Assembly: GCA_963721075.1 (NCBI GenBank)
Contig: CAVRHV010000008.1
Coordinates: 8,057-72,056 of the forward strand
Direction of reading: 5' to 3'
Source: an uncultured Ignavibacteria bacterium
GTDB taxonomy: Bacteria > Bacteroidota > Ignavibacteria > Ignavibacteriales > Ignavibacteriaceae
DNA length: 64,000 bases
Position 1 is the stretch's first letter; each line of letters opens with the position of its first letter. Both the position numbers and the translations under genes were made by a program. The notes beneath the pieces were generated by a model. The model searched no databases, was not told the origin of the DNA, and worked only from the letters and a program-made list of their open reading frames with translations. Shown one piece after another: positions 2,779 to 45,526 of this stretch.

Positions 2779-3172
2779 TGCCTTTTATGTAGAAGAGTTA
2801 CAATAATTAAAAGATCTTTTTGCGAAGGAATTTCACAATATATGTGCCAAAACGAAACAGGGTAAGCTAAGCTTAATTCTTTAATATTTGCTTGAAAAAC
2901 CTGGATTGTGAGACCCTTGTAATAGATCCCTATTGAACAAAATTCTCAAAATGAAACTTTTACTCAAATGATAGACATTATTACCTGATCCGATTCAATC
3001 AGATTTTGCTCCTTCTTATGCCGGAGTAGTCTCGGGGTTTAAGGCCGAGATGCCAGAGGCCGAACAAAGGCCGAGGAGTAAGTAATTTGTTTAAAGATAT
3101 AGAAAGGTTTTTCGTTTCTTTATTATATAAATTTTAGCTCTCATAAACAAGATTTTCTTTCTATCAGCGATA

Positions 3173-5061
3173 CTACTTCACCAGAAGCATTTTACGGATT
3201 TGTGAATAGTTTCCTGAAGTGAGCCTGTAAAAATATATGCCGCTGGGCAGTGATGAACCATCAAAAGAAATTTCGTATTCGCCCGCACTCATCTCTCTGT
3301 TAAGCAGTACACTGATCTCTCTCCCAAGTACATCATAAATAATGAGTGATGTTTTTTCATAATGCGGAAGAGTAAAACTTATCTTTGTCGATGGATTAAA
3401 AGGATTGGGGTAATTTTGTGCAAGACTGAAATCCAGACTGGAAATTTTCTGATCATCATTACCGGTGACGTTAAAATGTATTTCTTTACTTTTCATTATA
3501 ACCGGATTTTTATCCGCCTCTTCGTACATCCGGCTGAACCTGTTTATGTCCAATGAATTCATTCCGGCAAGGTATTCGGCAACTTCCGGTTTCAGAGTCT
3601 GATAACATACCTCAGCAGTAATATTCATCTCAGATATTTCATTAACCGGTATTCTGTATTTCACAACATCAGTGCCTGTGCCTTCATTCCCGTTAGCTTT
3701 ATTAAAATCAGGGTCATTCACAGCATAACCATATACAGCGGTAGTATCATAACTCGATATGTGATGACTTAAATCCCAGGGGCGGTATTCTGTTATCTTT
3801 GATAAAAGTTGATGCCCTGAGCAGGGTATAGGTTACGTTTCCGTTTATATCTATCGGTACTGCTTCATATACCTGCACTTCATCATCCCGATTTATTACG
3901 TTGTAATGCTTCTCAAATGGAAGATCCATTCCGTTTATCCTGCCTTCAACTGTCCCAGCTTCCCGATTCGAAAATTTTATTATTGTTTTCATCGGAAGCT
4001 TTAAGATGGATCCACATTCTCCTTAAAGGAATTCCGGTCGGAAGTTTGTGTCCTGTTATGTTTTGCAGCTTCACGCTCACGGTCAGCGAATCATTAATCT
4101 GTTCAGCTTCCACATAAAGATTAAGAGAAAGATCTTTAAGATTCCTTTCGGCAAAAGCCAGTGTAGTATCAAAATGACTGGTTTCTGCGGTTACCTGCAG
4201 TGTATCGGGGTAGTCGCGCAGCATCTTCAAAATAAAAGTATTTCCACCGACAAACGTTTCTTTCCAGAAAGGCGATCTGTGTGTAGTGTCCGACTCAGGA
4301 ATTGTGGCAATATCAATAGGATCAAAAATCTTTGGCGAATGGCAGCTTTGACAGGTGACCTGCTGTGCCGGGTAGATACTGTTTTTCCACTCAAGATAGG
4401 GGGTCTGTTCCGGAAAGTCACCGACTATATTGCCTTGCTCATCAAGTGTGGGAGTAAATAAGGTGTGGCATGTCGCGCATAAATCCGAAGTCAGTGATTT
4501 CGGCTCATAAGTAGGAGTATATCCGATAAACTGCTGCATAAAAAATGTATCGGGGTACTCATATGGCCCATAAACCAGACTGTCATCGGTAATTATGTAA
4601 TTACCTGAGTAAGATGACTGCTGCCCGAAGTTCGAAGGATTTATCTGATGGCAGACAGTGCAGCTAACTCCATCATTTGCAAGAGGATCCAGCCTGAGAT
4701 CAGCCATTGTGTATTTGGTGTGACCGTCATATAGAGCCTGGGTATATCCCATCGGAGCATGGCATTTGGTACAAAGCGTCTCAATTGTGTCCTGCAATGA
4801 CGGAAATTCATTCACTTCACCGGAAACCATTGCTCTCCATAAGGGATCTTTGCTGGAATTTGCCATCATAGTTGAACGCCAGTAAGTGGGAGGTGAAATA
4901 TCCACACCATTTAGCGATAATACATCTCCGTTGCCTGTATGGCAGTCGGCACAGTTTCCTGATCCTGAAAATAGAATGGAATTTTCGGTAGGAAGGGGAT
5001 ATTGTCCGAAAGCAGTTCCGATAATAAATTGGATAAGGACCAGAAAGTAAAATATTTTCAT
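3173..5061 (-). pseudogene. multiheme c-type cytochrome with T9SS C-terminal sorting domain, in three frames as assembled
   Basis: Signal peptide. Five CxxCH sites (CADCH, CTKCH, CTVCH, CATCH, CQSCH) in 3946-5061. The continuation '...DNRIPPLGFKSSH' lies in 3747-3992. The tail in 3173-3721 carries 'NYPNPFNPSTKISF...IYDVLGREI'. Frame breaks at about 3946-3992 and 3750-3770. Confidence 0.7.
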
Positions 5062-5377: not shown

Positions 5378-5764
5378 ATGTCTATAGGAAAAATTGGTTT
5401 CCTCGAAACCTACGCGCCGGATGATAATGGCGGTGTTATGGGCGCAATTCTTGTCACCGATGCGGATACAAAACCGCTGGAGTTCAGGGTAACGGCTCCG
5501 ATAAAAACTACCAACTTCCAGAAAACTTTATACGGAGACGTTCTTCTTGAGCACATCCTGGTAGAATTAATATCAGTCCCCCTGATAAATGCTCTGAATG
5601 AAGAGATTGATATAATACTGGTAAAAGATAATCTTTTCCTCGGAGCAAATAACAAGCAGGGCGTCAGAGTTGTCAGAGTTTCCGGAGATGACGATTTTCT
5701 GCTAAAACAAGTAAAGGTTCTCAGGAACTCAAGGCCTATAACGGCAGCGGAAAGATGTTCGTAG
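5378..5764 (+). CDS. hypothetical protein (128 aa), first gene of the SNF2/Mrr-like unit
   Basis: ORF preceded by AGAGAGG about 8 nt upstream. I recognise no family. A second open frame (5692-5907) continues to a TAATG junction with the next gene. Confidence 0.5.
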   Translation: MSIGKIGFLETYAPDDNGGVMGAILVTDADTKPLEFRVTAPIKTTNFQKTLYGDVLLEHILVELISVPLINALNEEIDIILVKDNLFLGANNKQGVRVVRVSGDDDFLLKQVKVLRNSRPITAAERCS

Positions 5765-5906
5765 AAACTTCGAAGAAATATGAAGCTGAACTTGGACAAA
5801 TAAAAGATCTCTTAAACGAGGTTGCTGAAAACAGGAATCTCCTTGAGCCCTTCGACCGCTTGAAACAAGCTTGCGAACAGGTCCATTTACAGAAAACAAG
5901 TGACTA

Positions 5907-8558
5907 ATGTACAGAGTCGTAAGGAAGAAGGTCGCAGAATCAGTCAGTAAGCTTGAATTTCCCGAGCATTACGACTGGAATAAATGGCTGAGAGAACCGG
6001 ATACTGATGATTATTATATAGACAACATCTATACATCGGTTCTTGATACGGATAACCTTAATGTCTGGCCTGAACTTCCTTCAACCAGGGGTTACTCATT
6101 TGATCTCCCCAAAGTAAAATATTCAAAAGCCTTTAAACAGCTTAATATCCAGAAACAGAAGAGTAGCAAGGTATTCTTCAGCTTCCCTAAAACTTCTTTA
6201 TCGGAGATAAAGGAAATTCTCCAGGAAGCAGATATTGCGTACTCGCTGTCGGTTTCGGATTCAGGAAAAGGTGCTATCTTTCGTTTAAGCGATGGTAAAC
6301 CTAAAAAGGTTTCCGGGCCTTCGTCTGAAATACTTATCCGTGAGTTTTACCTGCTTGTTCCCAGGCTTTTCAACTTTCCAATGCTGGTGCCCGGAGAGAA
6401 GGTATACTCTATTACCGTCGGACTTAACGATAAGGTTAAAGTTCTGGATCTTCTCTCTAACCTTAAAACAGAGGTAATGAAGGTTGAACTTCTGAATTCC
6501 GATAACATAATAAATCCTTTGAACAAAGCTGAAAACAGGGTAATTGAATTTCAGCCTCTGCAGAAATCTAATTCGGTAAAAAAGGTTGAGGTCGTGCAGC
6601 TGGAAAAACTCCTCGGTTCTATTAAGGATCAGAAAAAGTTGATCAGCAAAGTCGACTTTGGAGAAATTACTGTCGGAGATAAACCTGCTGAATTTAAGAT
6701 CCCGTCAGCTGTAAAAAATAAACTGAAAATACTTTCCGTCAAGAATATCAGGATTGCTGCCCCTAAAGTTAAACAGGGTGTAAAAATAACTGATAAAATC
6801 CTTTCTGAAACGAACGGTTTTTCGTTTAGCAGCCGGCAAGATGTTATCGATGAGAGTAAAGATGTGCTTTCCAGGGACCTTGAAGTCATCCTGCAGCCTG
6901 TAATGAATTTCAGTACAGAGGAAAAAGCAAAGATATACGATTTCCTTTATGACTATCAGAAACCCGCGGCGGATTTCCTTACGGAAAAAGAAAAAGTGCT
7001 TCTCAATGATGAACTCGGTACCGGAAAGACACTCGAGGTTATCGGAGCTCTGCAGATTCTTTTCAGGAAAAAGGATATATCTAATGCATTAATCGTCTGT
7101 CGTAAAGAAGACATTGGATGGGATAAACGAAATCAGTTATTAAGCAGCACAAAGCTAAGCGGATGGTATGATCACCTGCAAAAGTTCTCGCCTTCAATAA
7201 CAGCAAGCATAATTCACGACAATAGTGAGCACGAGTGGAAGGATCCATCAGCTGTTAAAATTATAGATCACAAATTGTTTAGTGAGGCAATTGAGAAAAA
7301 GTTCATATCTCTGAATGAGCTTAATCGCAGAAGCTGTCTTGTGATAGATGAATTAGAAGATTTTCCCGACATAGTACTTGAACCTGCTCCAAAATACCTG
7401 TGGATGCTGAGCGGACTGCCAACTGAAAAATTGAAAGATAAGATAGCCCTGATTGCTAATACCGAAGAACCTGTCGACAGCTTTGGCAGAACGCGGGAAG
7501 AAATTGCAGAAAAATCTCCCGTTAAAATTAAACAGGATTACTGGCTTGAAATGGATTCTGAACAAAGACTGGAATATGAGAAGGCTCTGGAATCCGGAAG
7601 AGAAAAGATTTATGATCTTGTACAGGCAGGCAATCCATTCCTGGTTCAGTCCAATGTATTTACATTAATCCATCAGCTCACTCAGATCGGCAACTTCTAC
7701 GGAAAAAAAGAATCAAGCGTTAAGTCTGATCTGCTTCTGCATCAGGTTAAAAGCATTCAGCAGAGCGGAAAGAAAGTCATGATATACTCACAGTACGACC
7801 GTCAGGGTACACAGAGACTCGAGAAGCTTTTTGCAAAAAACGGTATAAAGTATGTTGTCTATCAAACCGGCATTTCTCTTAAAGAGATGGAAGATGCTGT
7901 GAAAAAATTTGTCAGGGATAAATCCGTTACGGTTTTTCTGGCTGGTATGAAGGCGCTCAACGCCAAATTCAATCTTGATAACGTGCACTATCTGATCCAT
8001 TTTGATCAGTGGTGGAGTCCTGTAACTACCTGGCAGTCAGAGGAAAAGTTAAATTCAACTGAGAATAATAAGACCAGTCTGAATGTATATAACTATTTCA
8101 TCAAGAACAGCATAGATGAAAAAATTCAGATGAAACTTATCGAGAAGGGACTCGATAACAAAAATATGTTCGACCTCCTCAGTTCTGAAGGTATGTATGC
8201 ATTATTCACTAACGAGGACTGGCTTGAAGTACTGGAACTGGTCGAACCTAAAGACCCATCTTCAGTTGAGACAATGAAAAAAGAACATCTCGATTATATT
8301 GTTAACCTTACTACCGACGATTTTTCGCATAAAGTTAAAGCTCTGCTGGGAAGAATAGGATATAAGAATGTCAGCTTTAAAACGGCTTTCAATCCTGATG
8401 AAATGCGATTATACGCATCTACTATTAAAAATTCAGTAGAGGTTAAAGCAGCTGTTCAATGTCTGAATACAAAAGTTGTAACAAGGAAAGCTGTTAAAGA
8501 ATTTACAGAATCTCTTGTTTCAAACACCGAAAAAATGATTCATCTTCACAACAGGTGA
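5907..8558 (+). CDS. SNF2-family helicase-like ATPase with unknown about 340-aa N-terminal region and C-terminal Mrr-like (PD-(D/E)xK) domain. The reading frame probably continues to 8658 after a +1 break near 8538
   Basis: Motif I 'LNDELGTGKTLE', Ia 'ALIVCRKEDIGW', II 'LVIDELED', III 'WMLSGLP', IV 'VMIYSQY', V 'FLAGMKALNAKFNL...HFDQWWSP'. The tail 'LLGRIGYKNV...AAVQCLNTKVVTRKAVKEF' resembles Mrr_cat. Confidence 0.85.
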   Translation: MYRVVRKKVAESVSKLEFPEHYDWNKWLREPDTDDYYIDNIYTSVLDTDNLNVWPELPSTRGYSFDLPKVKYSKAFKQLNIQKQKSSKVFFSFPKTSLSEIKEILQEADIAYSLSVSDSGKGAIFRLSDGKPKKVSGPSSEILIREFYLLVPRLFNFPMLVPGEKVYSITVGLNDKVKVLDLLSNLKTEVMKVELLNSDNIINPLNKAENRVIEFQPLQKSNSVKKVEVVQLEKLLGSIKDQKKLISKVDFGEITVGDKPAEFKIPSAVKNKLKILSVKNIRIAAPKVKQGVKITDKILSETNGFSFSSRQDVIDESKDVLSRDLEVILQPVMNFSTEEKAKIYDFLYDYQKPAADFLTEKEKVLLNDELGTGKTLEVIGALQILFRKKDISNALIVCRKEDIGWDKRNQLLSSTKLSGWYDHLQKFSPSITASIIHDNSEHEWKDPSAVKIIDHKLFSEAIEKKFISLNELNRRSCLVIDELEDFPDIVLEPAPKYLWMLSGLPTEKLKDKIALIANTEEPVDSFGRTREEIAEKSPVKIKQDYWLEMDSEQRLEYEKALESGREKIYDLVQAGNPFLVQSNVFTLIHQLTQIGNFYGKKESSVKSDLLLHQVKSIQQSGKKVMIYSQYDRQGTQRLEKLFAKNGIKYVVYQTGISLKEMEDAVKKFVRDKSVTVFLAGMKALNAKFNLDNVHYLIHFDQWWSPVTTWQSEEKLNSTENNKTSLNVYNYFIKNSIDEKIQMKLIEKGLDNKNMFDLLSSEGMYALFTNEDWLEVLELVEPKDPSSVETMKKEHLDYIVNLTTDDFSHKVKALLGRIGYKNVSFKTAFNPDEMRLYASTIKNSVEVKAAVQCLNTKVVTRKAVKEFTESLVSNTEKMIHLHNR

Positions 8559-17932: not shown

Positions 17933-19928
17933 GTGATGAAAAAGACGTTGATACTGTTTATGATAGCTTTCAGCACAGTATTACTCTATTCACAGTCTGC
18001 CAAAGTTGTGACATACGGAGTAGATCCCCGTCAGGCGGAAGGAGATAGTACAGATATCTTTGAACTTCCTTATAATGGTCTGACAAACGTTGGTGAAAAT
18101 ACCCAGATGTATCTGGAAGCTATTTTAACCGATGCTACTCTTGATAATCCAACCTGGACTGTAGTAGAACAACCAAATGGTTCTAATCCAGTATTCGGAG
18201 CCAGTGTTAACCTGTCTGACGCAGAACAGGTAATAGAATTCAAACCTGACTTATCAGGTACTTATAAAATTGTTTTTTCAGATGGTTCAGTTTCTTCTGA
18301 TCCTCTGGTAATTAAAGTGGGCTTATATCTCGGATACCAGTATTCTTACCCTGTATTACCGAATCATGCCTGCCAGGATTGCCATGCTGACAAAACAGCA
18401 CAGTGGGAACAGACAGGGCACTATTCAATTTTTGAAGAAGGTTTGAACGGTACCTTAAGCAATCATTATGGACCGACCTGTATAAAATGTCATACAACCG
18501 GTTATGATGCTAATGCAGTTAATAATGGTTTTGATGATTTCGGTTTCGTATTCCCCGATACCTTATTCCCTGGACAATTCGATAATATGGTTGCCCAGTA
18601 TCCTGATGCAATGCTTCGCGCACGTATTCAGTGTGAAAGCTGCCACGGACCAGGAAGTATGCACGTAGGTGCTGCTAATGTAATGTCAGTTACTCTCGAC
18701 GTTCAGAACTGTGCTCTCTGCCACGATGAAGGACACCATGTATATCCGGCTCAATGGAGAGCTTCAGATCATGCTATGTTTGCCAAATCCGGCGGCGAAA
18801 CCAGAGCTTCCTGTGCACAATGTCATGATGGTGCAGGATTTGTTGATTATATCAAAGCAGGAAAAACACCTCCTTCGAGCGACTATTCTGAAGTAACTAA
18901 GATTACCTGTGCAGTCTGCCATGATCCTCACAGTGTTGAGAATCCTCATCAGCTGAGAACAATGACTGCTACTTTAACAAATGGTTATGAAATTACCGGA
19001 GCCGGTAATGGTGCTATCTGTATAAACTGCCACAAAGCCCGTCAGAATGCCGTAGATTATACAAACAATTATCTTAAGTAACTTAAGCACACACTATGGA
19101 CCTCATCATGGTCCCCAGGGTGATTTATTAGTAGGTAAAAATGCTATAACATTCGGTCAGAACATTGAAAGTTCACCGCACTTAGCAGCTACTACCGATG
19201 CATGCGTTAGATGCCATATGTATCCGGCAAGTTCTGATGCAAATGGAAATGTAATCCTGGTAGGTTCACACTCATTCAATATGTCATATGATGGCGTAGA
19301 TAATGTCGCTGCATGCACAGACTGCCACGGTGACTTTGGTCCTAACTTCTCAGATAAGCTTTGCTATATAAACGGTACAGCAGATCTTGACGGCGATGGA
19401 GTTGCTAATGGTCTTCAGATAGAAATTGAAGGCCTGCTTGAACAGCTTCATGATTTACTGCCTCAGGATGGTAATGGTAACGTAGTTATTAACGATTCTT
19501 CTGTAACATTAGCCGAGGCTCAGGCTGCTTATAACTACTTTATGGTAGAAGATGACGGAAGTATGGGCGTACACAATCCAAGATATATATTCGGAATTCT
19601 CAAGGCTTCTATCGAAGCTTTAGGCGGAACAGTAGCTGTTGATTATGCTAAGAGCGATATGCCTGAAGATTTCGTATTGTCACAGAACTATCCTAATCCG
19701 TTCAACCCAACAACTACTATTCAGTATCAGATACCCGAAGGTTCTAATGTAAAAGTAGTTGTTTATGACGCTCTTGGAAAACAGGTAGCCGTTCTGGTTA
19801 ATGAATACCAGGGTGCCGGTTCTTATAAAACAAACTTCAATGCATCTAATCTTGCATCCGGAATCTATTTCTGCAGAATGGAAGCAGGAAGCTTTGTTAA
19901 AGTTAACAAGATGCTTTTACTCAAGTAA
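17933..19928 (+). pseudogene. nine-heme c-type cytochrome with T9SS C-terminal sorting domain (paralogue A). One extra base at about 19076-19079 creates an in-frame TAA
   Basis: Colinear with the intact paralogue at 20117-22087. Has 9 CxxCH (CQDCH, CIKCH, CESCH, CALCH, CAQCH, CAVCH, CINCH, CVRCH, CTDCH). Removing one base restores '...YLNNLSTHYGPHHGPQGD', matching the paralogue's 'YLNNLSTHYGPHHGPQAD'. Tail 'NYPNPFNPTTTIQY'. The likely start is ATG 17936 after GGGAGA. Confidence 0.8.
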
Positions 19929-19991: not shown

Positions 19992-20116
19992 TATTCTTCT
20001 GGAACCCACGGTAATATTAATCACACAAACTTCTATCGATTTTTCTGAGATTAACATGCAGATAAATTCAAAATCAATGCAGAATTTAAATAAGAAGCTT
20101 CTTATGGAGACAGGCG

Positions 20117-22087
20117 ATGAAAAAAAAATTGTTACTGTTTATCTTTTTCCTTTCTTCAATACTCATTTTTCCGCAAACCGCACATATTGACACATACGGA
20201 CGCTCCCCTATACAGGTTGATGCCGATTCAACAGATATGTTCAATATACCTTATAATGGTCTTACTAATGTGGGTATATATACGCAAATGTACCTTGAGG
20301 TCAGCATGGATGGTGCGCATTTAACTAATCCGCAGTGGAATGTTATCCAGAAACCCAATGGATCCAATCCTCAATTTGGTACATCAACAAACCTTACCGA
20401 CTCAAATCAGGTAATTATATTTATACCGGATTCCTCGGGAACATATAAAATAGATTTTACAGACGGATCTGTTGCATCTGATACACTTACAATAAATGCA
20501 GGTTTATATTTAGGATATACAGGAGGTATTTTTAAGTGCGGGAGGTGCCACGGTGAAAAGGTGGATGAATGGCAGCAGACCGGTCACTATATGATATTTG
20601 AAGAAGGTCTGAATGGAACTCTCAGCAGCCACTATGGACCCAGCTGTATAAAGTGTCATACTACTGGATATGACGAAAATGCTGATAATAATGGTTTTGA
20701 TGACTTTCCGTTTGTTTTTCCGGATTCTCTCTATCCTGGTGTTTATGACCAGATGGTTGCACAGTATCCTCTGGCAATGCAGCGGGGGAGGATTCAGTGT
20801 GAAAGCTGTCATGGTCCCGGAAGTGAACACTATGGAGCCGCTAATATAATGTCGGTTACTTTAGCAGCTGAAAACTGCGCCTGGTGTCACGACGGCGGAC
20901 ATCATGTTTTCCCCTCACAGTGGAGGATCTCCAAACACGCAACATTTGAACATGGAATGACCAGAGCGGCATGCGCTCAGTGCCATAACGGTGCCGGCTT
21001 CGTGGAATATATTGAATCGGGCAAGCAGCCTATTGCGCAGGATCTTGCAAAGGTTGTACCGATAACCTGTGCAGTTTGCCACGACCCGCATAGTGCTGAG
21101 AATCCTCACCAGCTTAGAACTATGGATGTTACACTTTCTGATGGTGAAACTGTCGAAGGCGGGGGTAATGGTACAATTTGTATGAACTGCCATAAAGCCA
21201 GAGAGGATGCGGTTGAATATACAAACGACTACCTTAATAACTTAAGTACTCATTACGGGCCGCATCATGGCCCGCAGGCAGATATTCTTTCGGCAAAGAA
21301 TGCTGTTACATTTGGACAGAATATTCCCTCATCGCCTCACCTTGCGGCTACGGGTGACGCCTGCGTAACCTGTCATATGTACCCTGGAACGCTGGATCCG
21401 TATGGAGATATAATACTTGTGGGTTCACATACCTTCAGTATGTCACACGACAGCGTTGATAATGTGCAGGCCTGTTCCCCATGTCATGGAGATATAGGAA
21501 ACAGTTTTTCCGATAAGAAGTATTATGTGAATGGAAATGCTGATCTCGACGGTGATGGCGTTGCAAACGGACTACAGATTGAAGTTCAGGGACTTATGAA
21601 TCAGCTTAAGTCAATGCTTCCCCAGGATGGAAACGGTAATGTAGTAGTTAATGATTCATCCGTTACTTTAACACAGGCTCAGGCAGCATACGACTACCTG
21701 ATGGTTGCGGAAGACAGAAGCTACGGTATTCATAACCCGGCTTTCGTATATGGTATTCTGAAAGCTTCAATTGAGGCTCTCGGCGGTGTTGTTGCGGCGG
21801 GAAATGATAATAATCAGCTGCCTCACGATTTTGATCTGGCGCAGAACTATCCTAATCCGTTTAATCCGACTACAACAATAGAGTATAAAGTACCGGAAGC
21901 TTCTAATGTGAAAATTATCGTTTATGATGCACTCGGCAAGCAGGTTGAGGTACTTGTAGACGGTTATCAGAATGCGGGAACATATACACTGAATTTTAAT
22001 GGTTCAAACCTTGCTTCCGGAATATACCTTTGCAGAATGGAGGCAAAAGGTTTTGTCAAGGTTAACAAGATGCTTCTGCTTAAATGA
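20117..22087 (+). CDS. nine-heme c-type cytochrome with T9SS C-terminal sorting domain (paralogue B, intact)
   Basis: Signal peptide. 9 CxxCH (CGRCH, CIKCH, CESCH, CAWCH, CAQCH, CAVCH, CMNCH, CVTCH, CSPCH). C-terminal 'NYPNPFNPTTTIEY...VYDALGKQV'. GGAGA RBS. Confidence 0.9.
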   Translation: MKKKLLLFIFFLSSILIFPQTAHIDTYGRSPIQVDADSTDMFNIPYNGLTNVGIYTQMYLEVSMDGAHLTNPQWNVIQKPNGSNPQFGTSTNLTDSNQVIIFIPDSSGTYKIDFTDGSVASDTLTINAGLYLGYTGGIFKCGRCHGEKVDEWQQTGHYMIFEEGLNGTLSSHYGPSCIKCHTTGYDENADNNGFDDFPFVFPDSLYPGVYDQMVAQYPLAMQRGRIQCESCHGPGSEHYGAANIMSVTLAAENCAWCHDGGHHVFPSQWRISKHATFEHGMTRAACAQCHNGAGFVEYIESGKQPIAQDLAKVVPITCAVCHDPHSAENPHQLRTMDVTLSDGETVEGGGNGTICMNCHKAREDAVEYTNDYLNNLSTHYGPHHGPQADILSAKNAVTFGQNIPSSPHLAATGDACVTCHMYPGTLDPYGDIILVGSHTFSMSHDSVDNVQACSPCHGDIGNSFSDKKYYVNGNADLDGDGVANGLQIEVQGLMNQLKSMLPQDGNGNVVVNDSSVTLTQAQAAYDYLMVAEDRSYGIHNPAFVYGILKASIEALGGVVAAGNDNNQLPHDFDLAQNYPNPFNPTTTIEYKVPEASNVKIIVYDALGKQVEVLVDGYQNAGTYTLNFNGSNLASGIYLCRMEAKGFVKVNKMLLLK

Positions 22088-41383: not shown

Positions 41384-43945
41384 ATGAAAGGTGTCAATAC
41401 AGTCATACGATGGTGGGTGGGATTTCTATCCATCATTCTTTTCCAATCGGCTTTGTTCGCTCAAAGCGGTATAAACGATATAGGCGGCTTTGAGCAGACC
41501 CTGCCCTCATACTGGAATATGACGTCAGCCCCTTCAGGTGCAACACTAACCTGGGCAACTGACGAATATCGTTCAATGGGTAAATCGCTGAAGATTGAAA
41601 AAACAGCCACAACAGACTCAGCTATGTGGCAATCGGATAATATGGTTGACCTCTGGTCGCAGAGACATTATGCTAATGTCGATATAAAGCTCGGAATGTA
41701 CTATATGACCTCAGGGGTAAATACCAATCCTGTCAATGAGGATGAGAAGTGGTATGTAGCTTATACATTCTATGACAGCTTAGATGCTGTGATAGGAGAA
41801 AAGAAATTTGAGCTGGATCAGAGCGTAGCCAGCACGAGCGGCTGGGTAGCAGATACCACAGCAATAGGAGAAGTTATACTACCGGAGGATGCATTCAAGA
41901 CGATCATCAGGTTTGTAGGAGGAAAGAATGCAACCGGAACCGTATGGACAGATGACTATATATTCGTAGGAAGAAACGGAGGTTGGGCAGGACAGGACTG
42001 GAACACAGCAGTAGGAGTGCCGACAGGCTGGTTCTACTGGCTGCCGCCGATCGGAGGAAATGATGGCGTATTAAATGCAGGATATGAAAATACAGTTGTT
42101 ACTGATGAGTATGCACATACAGGTAATTATTCGCTTAAATTTGATATTCCTGAAGGTTCGCATGACGGCTTTGTCGGAACAATTAAATATGCTCTTGATG
42201 ATGCACAGCCGGGCGATGTTCTGAGAATAAGTGTCTGGGTTAAGGGCGCTAATCTGGAGCCCGATTCTGTAATTGCAGTAGGTGATGCCTGGAGTGTTTC
42301 ACTTACAGCAATCTACCATACTACTATGGGAAATAATGCAGGGTTCGGAGATTATGCAGCCAGCCCTGACATCCCGCTCCAGTTCCCTCAAGCTACTGAA
42401 TTCGATTGGAGAAAGTTTTATGTCGATGTAACAATACCGGATCCTCCGGCTGGTGAGACAGCAAAATCGATTTCAGTAAGACTTCATCCTCTCGGCAGAT
42501 TCTCAGGTACTGTCTGGATGGATGATCTCCATATTGAAAAACTGGATCTTCCGGATCTCAATTCTATCGGAAGTTTCGAACAGGATCTTCCTTCATACTG
42601 GAATAAAGGTTCTGAGCCTGAGAATTCAACACTAACCTGGGCAACTGACGAATATCGTTCAATGGGTAAATCGCTGAAGATTGAAAAAACAGCCACAACA
42701 GACTCAGCTATGTGGCAATCGGATAATATGGTTGACCTCTGGTCGCAGAGACATTATGCTAATGTCGATATAAAGCTCGGAATGTACTATATGACCTCAG
42801 GGGTAAATACCAATCCTGTCAATGAGGATGAGAAGTGGTATGTAGCTTATACATTCTATGACAGCTTAGATGCTGTGATAGGAGAAAAGAAATTTGAGCT
42901 GGATCAGAGTGTAGCCAGCACGAGCGGCTGGGTAGCAGATACCACAGCAATAGGAGAAGTTATACTACCGGAGGATGCATTCAAGACGATCATCAGGTTT
43001 GTAGGAGGAAAGAATGCAACCGGAACCGTATGGACAGATGACTATATATTCGTAGGAAGAAACGGAGGCTGGGCAGGACAGGACTGGAACACAGCAGTAG
43101 GAGTGCCGACAGGCTGGTTCTACTGGCTGCCGCCGGTCGGAGGAAATGATGGTGTATTAAATGCAGGATATGAAAATACAGTTGTAACTGATGAATATGC
43201 ATACGATGGAAATTACTCGCTTAAATTTGATATCCCTGTCGGATCGCATGACGGCTTTGTGGGAACCAAAAAATTTACACTTGGTGATATTCAGCCAGGA
43301 GATGCGATAAGAGTAAGTGTCTGGGTTAAGGGCGCTAATCTGGAGCCCGATTCCGCAATTGCAGTAGGTGATGCCTGGAGTGTTTCACTTACAGCAATCT
43401 ACCATACTACTATGGGAAATAATGCAGGGTTCGGAGATTATGCAGCCAGCCCTGACGTACCACTCGAGTTCCCATATGCAACTGAGTTTGATTGGATGCA
43501 GTATCATGTTGATTTGATTGTGCCTGATCCCCCGGCTGGAGAAACGGCAAAGGCAATTTCAGTCAGATTACATCCGCTTGGAAGATTTTCCGGTACTGTA
43601 TGGATGGATTTACTTGAGGTAACAAAGGTTCCCGTCGGAGTTACCGAAGGAAAAGAATTCCAGCCTGTATCGTATAATTTATTCCAGAATTATCCGAACC
43701 CGTTCAATCCCACTACTATCATAAGCTACTCAATACCTAAAGTATCTCACGTTACTTTGAAGATATATGATATACTGGGTAGAGAGGTTAAAACTTTGGT
43801 GAGCGCTGATCAGAATAATGGAATCCATAGAGTTCAATGGAATGGAGACAATAACTATGGAACCAGAGTTTCCAGCGGTATATACCTCTACAGGATTGAA
43901 GCAGGTGATTTCATACAAACGAAGAAAATGATCCTGATTAAATAA
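41384..43945 (+). CDS. secreted surface protein made of two about 362-aa tandem modules (CBM-like jelly-roll suspected) plus a T9SS C-terminal sorting domain
   Basis: Signal peptide. Internal duplication. Tail 'NYPNPFNPTTIISY...IYDILGREV'. Confidence 0.85.
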   Translation: MKGVNTVIRWWVGFLSIILFQSALFAQSGINDIGGFEQTLPSYWNMTSAPSGATLTWATDEYRSMGKSLKIEKTATTDSAMWQSDNMVDLWSQRHYANVDIKLGMYYMTSGVNTNPVNEDEKWYVAYTFYDSLDAVIGEKKFELDQSVASTSGWVADTTAIGEVILPEDAFKTIIRFVGGKNATGTVWTDDYIFVGRNGGWAGQDWNTAVGVPTGWFYWLPPIGGNDGVLNAGYENTVVTDEYAHTGNYSLKFDIPEGSHDGFVGTIKYALDDAQPGDVLRISVWVKGANLEPDSVIAVGDAWSVSLTAIYHTTMGNNAGFGDYAASPDIPLQFPQATEFDWRKFYVDVTIPDPPAGETAKSISVRLHPLGRFSGTVWMDDLHIEKLDLPDLNSIGSFEQDLPSYWNKGSEPENSTLTWATDEYRSMGKSLKIEKTATTDSAMWQSDNMVDLWSQRHYANVDIKLGMYYMTSGVNTNPVNEDEKWYVAYTFYDSLDAVIGEKKFELDQSVASTSGWVADTTAIGEVILPEDAFKTIIRFVGGKNATGTVWTDDYIFVGRNGGWAGQDWNTAVGVPTGWFYWLPPVGGNDGVLNAGYENTVVTDEYAYDGNYSLKFDIPVGSHDGFVGTKKFTLGDIQPGDAIRVSVWVKGANLEPDSAIAVGDAWSVSLTAIYHTTMGNNAGFGDYAASPDVPLEFPYATEFDWMQYHVDLIVPDPPAGETAKAISVRLHPLGRFSGTVWMDLLEVTKVPVGVTEGKEFQPVSYNLFQNYPNPFNPTTIISYSIPKVSHVTLKIYDILGREVKTLVSADQNNGIHRVQWNGDNNYGTRVSSGIYLYRIEAGDFIQTKKMILIK
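41470..43630 (+). repeat. intragenic tandem duplication, period 1086 bp
   Basis: 41541... and 42627... read identically for hundreds of bases. I saw only three substitutions in the first about 520 bp. Divergence increases toward the 3' part of each unit. Confidence 0.9.
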
Positions 43946-43997
43946 CGACATATGTCGCCTCAGAAAAGATTAAATTAACAAAAAACTGAGGTGATAA

Positions 43998-44843
43998 ATG
44001 AATTTAAGAAGAAGCTTAATAAACAGACAGCAAATAAAAAGTTCGGAAGGAGAGTTCATCTGGGAATTAGAAAACTCATATGAACTCTCTCCGAAGTTAA
44101 GTTCATTAATACTAATAACAGCCAAAGAATGTTTAATAAGGGAGAATAATTTAAGAGAAGGACAAATAGAAGTTACAGTAATCGGGATAGAGGAAAGATC
44201 GGGAAAAGTAATAGAGAAGATGGAAAAGAAAAGAGTTAGGTTGACGATTGATAACGGTATAGAAGACCTGGAAGTTTTAAGGGAAAATGGAAGAGTAGAG
44301 CTGCGGAGAGTAAGGCTGCAGAGGATAAGCCAGGAAGCGATAGAACAGGAAGGAGTCGTAAGTCAAGAAGATTTATCCAAATATTTAGGATGCACAGTAA
44401 GGACTATTCAAAGAGATATAAGGATTATAAAAAAAGAAGGAATAGAAGTAGTAACCAGAGGATATATTCATAATATAGGCAGATGCCAGACACATAAAGT
44501 AAAAATAATAAGTATGATGTTAGATGGGATGACCTATAGTGAAATAAAACTAAGATCCAGACATTCGATAGGAGCAATAAAGAGATACATAGAAAGTTTT
44601 ACAAAAGTCGTAATGGCACAAAAAAAAGGGATATACAGAGTAAAAGATATAAGTGCAGTAACGGGTTTAAGTGAGGGATTAGTAAAACAGTACGTTGAGT
44701 TGCTGAAGGAAAGCAAAAAAGACAAAACAAGGAGAGAGAATCTCAAGCTATTGATAGAAAGAAACAGTTATAGAGAGCATATAAAAAAAACTGTAAAGAA
44801 GCATTCAGAGCCTCTGGCAGCTATGATGGGAGGCTTGTTATGA
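43998..44843 (+). CDS. multi-HTH protein of unknown function (DUF1670-like by recollection)
   Basis: Strong SD GAGGTGAT. HTH-like segments 'SQEDLSKYLGCTVRTIQRDIRIIKKEG', 'MTYSEIKLRSRHSIGAIKRYIESF' and 'VKDISAVTGLSEGLVKQYVELL'. Confidence 0.75.
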   Translation: MNLRRSLINRQQIKSSEGEFIWELENSYELSPKLSSLILITAKECLIRENNLREGQIEVTVIGIEERSGKVIEKMEKKRVRLTIDNGIEDLEVLRENGRVELRRVRLQRISQEAIEQEGVVSQEDLSKYLGCTVRTIQRDIRIIKKEGIEVVTRGYIHNIGRCQTHKVKIISMMLDGMTYSEIKLRSRHSIGAIKRYIESFTKVVMAQKKGIYRVKDISAVTGLSEGLVKQYVELLKESKKDKTRRENLKLLIERNSYREHIKKTVKKHSEPLAAMMGGLL

Positions 44844-45439
44844 GTTTAAATCAGACAAGAGATAGGTATGAAAGCATAAACAAAAGGAATTTTCATCAGG
44901 CAATAGTAAACCTGCTGGAGAATGAATATAAGATACTGGGGTCAAGAAAAGTACTGGATATGCTGGCAGACGATATAGAAGATCTGCACAGGGAATATTA
45001 TCCGGTAAGCAACCAGGTAGGGATCGGAGAAATAGTTTTCAGAACGACGAAGGATGATGGTCAACGACAGAATTATGGTAAGAAGACGGAAGATTATGCG
45101 GCAGTGACAGTAGTACTTCCACTGATAACCGAAGAAGATGTAGAAAGAAGAATCTTCTATAAGAAGGGAGACCGTAACAGTAATTATAAACACCGGGAAG
45201 CAAGAGATATAGAGACAATGGTAAGGTTGCTGAAGGCCGCCAAGGCACAGGGAGGATTACTAAGCGGAGCAGAGCTGAGTGTTTTAATGAATAGAAGCCT
45301 GACTTCAATAAGGAAATATTTAGATGCTTACAGAACAAAAACCGGAGAGATACTTCCATTGAAAGGATATGTGCTGGACCAGGGAAGTTTACCGACACAT
45401 AAAGGAATCATAATAAGTTTATATGAGCAGGTTAAGTAA
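44840..45439 (+). CDS. HTH protein of unknown function, paralogous to the C-terminal half of the preceding gene
   Basis: ATGA start/stop overlap. GGGAGG SD. 'LSGAELSVLMNRSLTSIRKYLDAYRTKTGEILPLKGYVLDQGSLPTHKGIIISL'. Confidence 0.75.
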   Translation: MSLNQTRDRYESINKRNFHQAIVNLLENEYKILGSRKVLDMLADDIEDLHREYYPVSNQVGIGEIVFRTTKDDGQRQNYGKKTEDYAAVTVVLPLITEEDVERRIFYKKGDRNSNYKHREARDIETMVRLLKAAKAQGGLLSGAELSVLMNRSLTSIRKYLDAYRTKTGEILPLKGYVLDQGSLPTHKGIIISLYEQVK

Positions 45440-45451
45440 GAAATGTAGTTA

Positions 45452-45486
45452 AGGGTGCTGATTATTCAGCACCCTATGTTTTTATT
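45452..45486 (+). terminator. hairpin terminator after the cassette
   Basis: AGGGTGCTG (45452-45460) / CAGCACCCT (45467-45475), followed by ATGTTTTTAT. Confidence 0.6.
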
Positions 45487-45526
45487 CACGATGTAGTTAA
45501 TTAATCTTTTATTCAGGAAAAAACAG

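Follow-up and report, generated by a model that had tools for sequence, protein, structure and literature searches.

The DNA analysed here, a stretch of 64,000 nucleotides of contig CAVRHV010000008.1 from an uncultured Ignavibacteria bacterium (referred to below as the window), contains a cassette of two genes, ORF1 and ORF2, which directly follows a gene for an 853-amino acid (aa) surface protein in a glycan-utilisation locus (Table 1). An earlier description made from the letters alone, here called the sequence-only reading, had reported two open reading frames of 281 and 199 aa that overlap by ATGA and are each preceded by a Shine-Dalgarno site, and all of these were present as stated (GAGGTGAT before the ORF1 start and GGGAGG before the ORF2 start). 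Its expectation of the domain DUF1670 was also confirmed: ORF1 matched the Pfam model PF07900 with 155 bits (E 2.3e-45) and ORF2 with 98.6 bits (E 4.5e-28), both above the gathering score of 25 bits, so that the two proteins belong to this family. The ORF2 match was confined to profile positions 1-160 of 220 because ORF2 is truncated. Additionally, ORF1 matched HTH_11 and other helix-turn-helix (HTH) models of Pfam, and the two proteins are distant paralogues that share 27% identity across 66 residues. As far as its identity only is concerned, the cassette is very likely a truncated copy of a site-specific mobile element.

Table 1. Features of the cassette and its surroundings, in window coordinates.
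Feature	Position	Strand	Description
Target gene, 853-aa surface protein	41384-43945	+	C-terminal sorting domain of the type IX secretion system (Por_Secre_tail ~43691-43933); final A+TAA (43942-43945) supplied by the element
AA dinucleotide	43940-43941	+	first two bases of the host Lys codon, directly left of the element; repeated at the right junction in full-length copies
Left terminal inverted repeat, ATAA-CGACATATGTCG-CCT	43942-43960	+	onset of homology in copies with unrelated flanks; inverted match to the right end of full-length copies
12-nt terminal palindrome, CGACAT/ATGTCG	43946-43957	+	inside the left repeat
Fold-back stem-loop	43953-43996	+	arm TGTCGCCTCAG (43953-43963) pairs with CTGAGGTGATA (43986-43996), which contains the Shine-Dalgarno site
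ORF1	43998-44843	+	281 aa, intact; DUF1670 with HTH_11 (Pfam and open reading frame call)
ORF2	44840-45439	+	199 aa, truncated (full length 267 aa); DUF1670; only 44840-45431 derived from the element
Truncation point	45431/45432	.	3'-terminal 242 bp missing, including the ORF2 C-terminus and the right inverted repeat
AAGTAA	45434-45439	+	putative displaced host Lys-stop, reused in frame as the stop of truncated ORF2; only TT between the break and AAGTAA
Intrinsic terminator	45452-45475	+	10-bp stem and T run; unique in the window

The mobile nature of this DNA was evident from its copies elsewhere. Scanning one genome per species gave 30 loci, nearly all of them in Ignavibacteria or 'Bacteroidetes' metagenome-assembled genomes (MAGs), and a scan of metagenomes gave 80 more, mostly whole contigs of 1.1-3 kb. 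At least six copies with 99.1-99.7% identity were present in MAG CAVXRO01 and three with ~99% identity in MAG CAVYUP01, in both cases over ~1.77 kb and between unrelated, non-aligning flanks. Furthermore, protein searches returned hundreds of homologues whose longest contig was mostly 1-3 kb, which is the pattern of assembly-breaking repeats. Two hallmarks of insertion sequences were therefore found, namely near-identical copies with common ends in unrelated flanks and terminal inverted repeats, and the element is a multi-copy, recently active insertion-sequence-like family of Ignavibacteria-like genomes. This agrees with the suggestion of the sequence-only reading that the cassette is a compact selfish element, mobilised by an unrecognised enzyme or in trans, as a family with defined ends has near-identical copies in unrelated flanks. 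Within the 64-kb window no second copy was found, and no known RNA families were detected in the cassette.

A complete element measures ~1.73 kb and consists of ~20-nt terminal inverted repeats with a 12-nt palindrome in each, a 5' untranslated region (UTR) and two overlapping paralogous DUF1670 genes; the full element at locus L001 (4945-6676, 1,732 bp) encodes ORF1 (281 aa) and ORF2 (267 aa) and no other genes. More than 100 loci have inverted-repeat ends in common, of the general form ATAR-CGACAWWTGTCG-CCT. In the family of the window copy the left end reads ATAA-CGACATATGTCG-CCT and the right end AGG-CGACAAATGTCG-TAAT followed by AGT, while a second family has ATAG-TGCCATTTGGCA-CCT and AGG-TGCCAAATGGCC-CTAT, also followed by AGT. 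Full-length copies have ATAG(T/G)GCCATTTGGCACCT and AT(A/T)ACGACAT(A/T)TGTCGCCT as inverted repeats at both ends, and the window copy has the left repeat only. The palindrome within the repeat is conserved as a stem, since 93.5% of the cells in an alignment of 43 variants were paired, with compensatory changes at two pairs, in comparison to 6-58% in slid controls. The loop bases of the left hairpin, in turn, flip freely among copies (AA, TT, AT). Every terminal-hairpin motif in the DNA collected belongs to a DUF1670 element, and no other cargo was found there between the same hairpin ends. A non-coding class of element, such as a miniature inverted-repeat transposable element (MITE) or a REPIN, was rejected because the element is filled by two conserved ORFs, and a phage or plasmid module was rejected because no relatives were found in IMG/VR or PLSDB and PHROGs gave HTH noise only.

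Two further observations concern the ends. Solo hairpins of 23 nt, AAATAA-GGAA(G/A)AT(C/T)TTCC-TAATAGT-AAATAG, and a second type, TATCA..TGATAC-TAACTAT, lie at the ends of some genes for C-terminal sorting domain (CTD) proteins (L007, 6677-6712; L025, minus strand, ~4773; right flank of L010; left flank of L105). These gene-less hairpins with the end signature of the element could be deletion footprints or miniature derivatives. In addition, at L111 a gene with faint matches to rve (integrase core) and HTH_28 (5675-6901, minus strand) directly follows a DUF1670 pair whose ORF2 is cut down to 246 aa; it is probably an unrelated insertion sequence that landed in the right end of the element.

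The copies gave the element other termini than those that had been proposed from the window alone. The sequence-only reading had bracketed the cassette by an inverted repeat at 43964-43979 and 45496-45510, whose perfect core has only 10 nt and which ranked 18 of 31 comparable inverted pairs in 2.1 kb; a pattern of this kind is expected by chance. The left arm coincides with the loop of the conserved 5'-UTR stem-loop, the right arm is host DNA beyond the element, and no other copy carries the repeat; thus the search for copies that this reading had advised did succeed in relatives, but the termini were not shared by them. For the same reason a target duplication TCAG had to be discarded as chance, as had the CCT seen outside both repeat arms, neither of them being present in other copies. 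The 10-bp direct repeat ATGTAGTTAA does exist at 45443-45452 and 45491-45500, where it brackets the terminator, but it is only marginally above chance (two matches in 5/100 shuffles) and lies outside the element as defined by other copies.

The cassette also turned out to be a 3'-truncated relic rather than an intact unit. Homology to the other copies sets in at ~43920-43945 and ends at 45431 in every copy, 8 nt before the ORF2 stop, whereas ~20 full-length copies all run on beyond the equivalent of 45431 with common sequence that is missing from the window, and their ORF2 extends ~70 residues further. The true right end is therefore absent from the window copy, which comprises 43942-45431 (1,490 of 1,732 bp), keeps the left end and ORF1 and, having lost the right repeat, is an immobile relic unable to move by its own ends. 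Its ORF1 is 99% identical to that of a near-identical full-length copy located elsewhere (P0001/L117). The final codons of ORF2, GTT AAG TAA, are non-element sequence. To judge from the order of sequence in full-length copies, where the target's own AARTAR comes after the right end, the AAGTAA here is probably the displaced Lys-stop of the host gene, and the deletion would end at most 2 nt from the right tip of the element, removing the right repeat. Similarly, the terminator downstream is probably the original one of the 853-aa gene, pushed away by the insertion. Truncated or internally deleted copies are frequent elsewhere (L018, L022-L030, L025, L053). In such deletion derivatives (L053, ~1327; window, 45431) one endpoint tends to coincide with the right hairpin or tip or to lie only a few bases from it, a bias that may be due to aberrant events directed at the end and not to random deletion.

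Our analysis of the flanks showed that the element uses a very particular target, the end of genes for cargo of the type IX secretion system (T9SS), which the sequence-only reading had not noticed. The 853-aa protein of the window matched the sorting domain model PF18962 (E 1.9e-8, residues translated from 43550-43945), as did four other upstream proteins and one precomputed annotation. A total of 91 different left flanks was collected, 75 of them 30 nt or longer, and about 71 of these 75 close with a CTD tail of the form ...KKM(I/V)L(M/L/I)K-stop; the tail of the window gene (...TKKMILIK-stop) agrees with the consensus of these 75 distinct insertions. The exceptions were L017 and L095, in which the gene and the element are separated by a group II intron, L105 (mini-element) and degraded copies. 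The orientation of the element is always that of the target gene, whose own terminator is found just beyond the right end.

Comparison of the two junctions located the insertion point within the last sense codon. The left 6-mer is fixed within a family (AAATAA or AAATAG) and carried AAG in 0/63 cases, whereas the right 6-mer, after ...TAATAGT, was variable within one family and one genome (AAATAA, AAATAG, AAGTAG, AAGTAA, AAATGA, AAGTGA). The frequency of AAG was 18/57 at the right junction and 7/22 in uninserted CTD genes, so that the left junction differed both from the right (p = 3e-7) and from native ends (p = 3e-5), in contrast to right versus native (p = 1.0). Therefore, the target gene contributes the Lys-stop at the right junction, and the ATAR at the left is element sequence. 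Furthermore, the flanking dinucleotides co-vary (50 AA/AA, 2 AG/AG and 0 mixed; Fisher p = 7.5e-4), which means that the element splits the codon after its second base (AA^RTAR) and has a 2-nt repeat on either side. Since the left tip, ATAA or ATAG, rebuilds both Lys and stop, the host protein is unchanged. Judged from the junctions, this 2-nt identity would fit either a 2-bp staggered cut with duplication or a crossover dinucleotide like that of serine recombinases. A longer target duplication of 5-6 bp, AAATA, was rejected because in one family many copies have different bases at positions 3 and 6 of the left and right 6-mers. TGA stops were rarer at occupied sites than at uninserted ones (3/57 vs 6/22, p = 0.012), which may indicate that TA is needed behind the cut.

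The window itself offers examples of empty target sites, three uninserted genes with T9SS tails (3173-3832, minus strand; 19056-19928 and 20090-22087, plus strand; tails ..KMLLVK-stop and ..KMLLLK-stop) that end in AAGTAG, AAGTAA and AAATGA. The 853-aa gene also contains a direct repeat, 100% identical over at least 300 nt (41541-41840 and 42627-42926, spacing 1,086 nt), which is either a very recent duplication of an internal domain block or an assembly artefact.

The 5' UTR of the element contains the fold-back stem-loop of Table 1. Its RNA has a minimum free energy of -16.9 kcal/mol (z = -4.9), and the fold predicted for it adds pairs between 43949-43951 (CAU) and the AUG of ORF1. Over 43 variants the 11-bp stem was paired in 90.5% of cells, in comparison to 33-47% when slid, with compensatory changes at 3 pairs (15 cells), and in a GC-rich relative (58% GC, 34% protein identity) the same position holds another 11-bp stem, of different sequence and perfectly paired. 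The loop contains a nearly invariant TAAATT box (43971-43976). In our reading, read-through RNA from the host gene would fold the stem and hide the Shine-Dalgarno site and AUG of ORF1, leaving ORF1 untranslated, so that read-through would not switch the element on, while transcripts initiating in the loop, at the TAAATT(T/A) box, would escape the stem and be translatable. In IS10 and IS50 a fold-back structure hides the ribosome-binding site of the transposase in read-through RNA, and our reading follows this analogy. The Shine-Dalgarno site of ORF2, in turn, falls in the conserved C-terminus of ORF1 (AAMMGGL), which together with the ATGA overlap implies translational coupling.

Both genes are maintained. 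Across copies the median dN/dS was 0.12 for ORF1 and 0.077 for ORF2 at dS ~1.3, i.e. strong purifying selection, and ORF1 was intact in 92/107 loci. Pairs with as little as 39-44% protein identity keep the two-gene overlap and the CGACATTTGTCG / CGACAWWTGTCG hairpin. The coding strand is also unusual, as the sequence-only reading had recognised when it called it purine-rich and different from the flanks. Over 43750-45500 the GC skew was 0.29-0.42 and the AT skew 0.24-0.38 (flanks mostly -0.1 to 0.2), and purines occupied 73% of third codon positions in ORF1 and 66% in ORF2 of the window, in comparison to 44-50% in five neighbour genes. In base terms, the third positions of window ORF1 had A 0.52, G 0.22, T 0.17 and C 0.10, and those of the neighbours A 0.24-0.31 and T 0.31-0.39. 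The values for the family were 74% (ORF1, 92 intact copies) and 66% (ORF2, 53 intact copies), with a lower bias in distant relatives (0.57-0.64), and a purine-loaded sense strand thus seems to be a conserved property of this family.

The DUF1670 family comprises 958 clusters at 50% identity (E < 1e-3), most members having 260-290 aa. Longer members on 3-7 kb contigs are fusions of two (P0289, P0314, P0333; 532-546 aa) or three DUF1670 units (P0272, P0278, P0298, P0368; 930-952 aa), and they consist only of such repeated DUF1670 and HTH domains, with no known enzyme domain fused to DUF1670. AlphaFold2 models (pLDDT 77 for ORF1, 73 for ORF2) have three helices, a beta-hairpin, a long helix and three HTH/winged-helix units. 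Near-invariant positions across distant members are K14, G55, G69, D90, R109, Q117, D125, T136, R154, G155, G161, H166, H189, Y197, F201, S225 and Y232; the conserved H189 and R196-Y197 fall in a predicted HTH recognition helix, and the N-terminal Ser/Thr that follows K14 shows no conservation in ORF2 or in some of the distant members.

None of the established enzyme classes could be assigned to these proteins. A DDE (RNase H-fold) transposase was rejected because there was no rve/DDE match, no Foldseek match and no DDE triad, the models being helical HTH models with one beta-hairpin. A serine recombinase, including IS607, was rejected in view of the missing PF00239 match, the weak top Foldseek matches of ORF2 to Tn3 and gamma-delta resolvase being not significant (E 0.34, TM 0.13-0.20). 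A tyrosine recombinase found no match in Pfam, NCBIfam or PDB, and an IS200/IS605 HUH Y1 transposase was rejected as there was no Y1_Tnp match and the ends are inverted repeats. PHROGs and PADLOC gave nothing beyond HTH noise. The observation of the sequence-only reading that no recombinase motif is visible thus held in all of Pfam, NCBIfam, PDB sequence search and Foldseek, whereas the cryptic nuclease or recombinase that it had proposed to look for by structure prediction and fold search did not appear, AlphaFold2 and Foldseek yielding only HTH/winged-helix similarity. The element is insertion-sequence-like and belongs to a previously undescribed family with two predicted DNA-binding proteins and no recognisable transposase.

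How such an element moves is best considered together with the alternatives. We propose that ORF1 and ORF2, each with three HTH/winged-helix units behind a small N-terminal domain, would act together, as the natural double and triple DUF1670 fusions support, and that the pair would bind both the palindromic ends and the conserved target DNA, ...AAGAAGATG.T..T..TGAA (target also ...AAGAAGATGATTTTGATGAAATAA). That the pair itself carries out breakage and joining has, in our estimation, only slightly less than an even chance, and recruitment of a host-encoded recombinase or transposase by the pair is little less likely than that. The stronger version, in which the pair is a new class of transposase or site-specific recombinase made of HTH arrays and a small N-terminal domain without a known catalytic fold, has somewhat less than an even chance; here a heterodimer would recognise the palindromic ends and the T9SS gene end, and insertion would proceed with a 2-nt stagger in the last codon, which the element tip would repair. 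Several points weigh against an enzyme of this kind and against the reading of the sites. Searches with Pfam and NCBIfam found no catalytic domain or motif in ORF1 or ORF2, only DUF1670 and HTH, the PDB sequence search was empty for both proteins, Foldseek against PDB gave a best E of 0.08 for the two models with HTH arrays only, and D90 is the sole nearly invariant acidic residue across distant members. Neither an empty orthologous site nor an excision product or a circle junction was retrieved, and exact-sequence look-ups of ORF1, ORF2 and the 853-aa protein of the window had no match on record. In addition, the copies are related sequences, so that the junction statistics overstate their independence, though the flanks are distinct, and one distant relative pair (L115) is not beside a CTD gene, which may mean that the CTD preference is lineage-specific.

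A non-autonomous element, whose cutting and joining is done by a recombinase or transposase encoded elsewhere while the DUF1670 pair only recognises ends or target or acts as a regulator, is a serious possibility but a somewhat doubtful one. The enzyme could be a Xer-like tyrosine recombinase, a serine recombinase, an IS200/IS605-type HUH TnpA or a REP-associated tyrosine transposase (RAYT; REP, repetitive extragenic palindromic) acting on the terminal hairpins, and the role of the pair would resemble that of TnsD/TniQ-type target selectors or recombination directionality factors. Both proteins indeed resemble plain DNA-binding proteins, without any nuclease or recombinase fold, the end palindromes are short and able to form hairpins, orientation-specific insertion beside a short fixed sequence, with a duplication no longer than 2 nt, recalls hairpin-dependent or site-specific systems, and 23-nt solo-hairpin derivatives occur at CTD gene ends. 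However, no candidate partner was found in the ~120 loci to which this search was limited, and all terminal-hairpin motifs in the collected DNA are part of DUF1670 elements. Moreover, the ORFs are intact under strong purifying selection in all lineages, with pair and hairpin travelling together down to 39% identity as an element's own machinery would, and the ends, unlike those of IS200/IS605, remain genuine inverted repeats outside the palindrome as well. The purine bias raises another possibility, a single-stranded DNA or RNA intermediate for which purine loading of the sense strand would be a by-product or a requirement, leaving no structure to compete with the terminal hairpins. The excess of third-position purines over host genes despite dS ~1.3, the hairpins at both ends and the strict polarity of insertion would suit it, but we consider it improbable: Pfam and NCBIfam detected no HUH, reverse transcriptase or Rep domain, the left-hairpin loop flips freely, stems and outer flanks follow the pattern of inverted repeats in double-stranded DNA, and the bias weakens in distant relatives and might just as well be due to selection for low expression or to avoidance of Rho loading. 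Lastly, the sequence-only reading had offered a horizontally acquired regulatory pair as its alternative, which in the form of a regulator of the surrounding glycan-utilisation locus, with the copies being ordinary gene-family expansion, has hardly any probability left and was not needed. It would account for two HTH-rich proteins and for a cassette placed between a LacI-ADH-surface-protein block and TonB-dependent receptor genes, but not for copies 99-99.7% identical in DNA with sharp common ends and unrelated flanks in one genome, for 91 distinct insertion flanks at nearly always the same codon of unrelated CTD genes, for terminal inverted repeats, for a truncated ORF2 in the window or for a third-position composition foreign to the host.

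We see a substantial likelihood that the enzyme of this element is of a categorically new kind. If the DUF1670 pair is the transposition machinery, the element would represent a new family of insertion sequences, possibly with a novel enzyme for breaking and joining DNA, and a function would be given to DUF1670, a domain for which we found no functional annotation; our literature search on DUF1670/PF07900, on insertion sequences of Ignavibacteria and on T9SS-targeted elements found nothing relevant. The target is unusual as well, since the conserved last codons of many T9SS cargo genes serve as harmless landing pads where the split codon is repaired. A compact two-protein integration system that is specific for sequence and orientation would be of practical interest for engineering Bacteroidota and Ignavibacteriota, and the family explains recurrent contig breaks and orphan contigs of 1.7-2 kb in soil and sediment metagenomes.

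Among known systems, the choice of site resembles that of Tn7, a transposon of ~14 kb whose TnsABCDE proteins have known catalytic folds and whose insertion duplicates 5 bp at a single site per genome, downstream of glmS. Like Tn7 at attTn7 in the TnsD pathway, the DUF1670 element apparently takes the conserved 3' coding end of a host gene as its landmark, inserts in one orientation into a 'safe harbour' upstream of the gene's terminator and leaves the host protein intact. It differs in being only 1.73 kb long with two HTH proteins, in inserting inside the last codon, which is rebuilt, and in the many T9SS cargo genes usable per genome; no homology of the pair to Tns proteins was detected with Pfam or NCBIfam. 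In its small size, terminal inverted repeats, copy number, 2-nt flanking repeat and strong target preference it resembles IS30, IS630/Tc1 and the REP-inserting IS1397/ISKpn1, and it would share with IS10 and IS50 the sequestered ribosome-binding site. Unlike these DDE insertion sequences, it has no DDE (RNase H-fold) domain or fold, and it carries two paralogous ORFs instead of one transposase or an OrfA/OrfB frameshift pair.

The same dinucleotide at both junctions without a longer duplication is a likeness to IS607 and other serine-recombinase elements, as it fits a serine-recombinase crossover, but the proteins lack a Resolvase match in Pfam and a family-wide N-terminal serine, and their predicted N-terminal domain of three helices and a beta-hairpin is not the resolvase alpha/beta fold. 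Hairpin ends, strict polarity, a short fixed sequence, near-zero duplication and hairpin-only derivatives are in turn shared with IS200/IS605, its TnpA-less derivatives and REP/RAYT, in contrast to which there is no HUH Y1 transposase, the inverted repeats extend past the hairpin and the loop orientation is unconserved. Finally, group II introns of the same genomes occupy the same CTD Lys-stop (AART^AR), one or two bases from the insertion point of the DUF1670 element. They were identified by Rfam RF02005 and RF00029 at L017 (~2937-4944) and L095 (~175-1081), in the element-borne Lys-stop right before the left hairpin, and in the right flanks of L031 and L077, in the native Lys-stop right of the element. 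As ribozyme/reverse-transcriptase retroelements these introns have no sequence relation to the DUF1670 element, and the two represent a convergent use of the same harbour.

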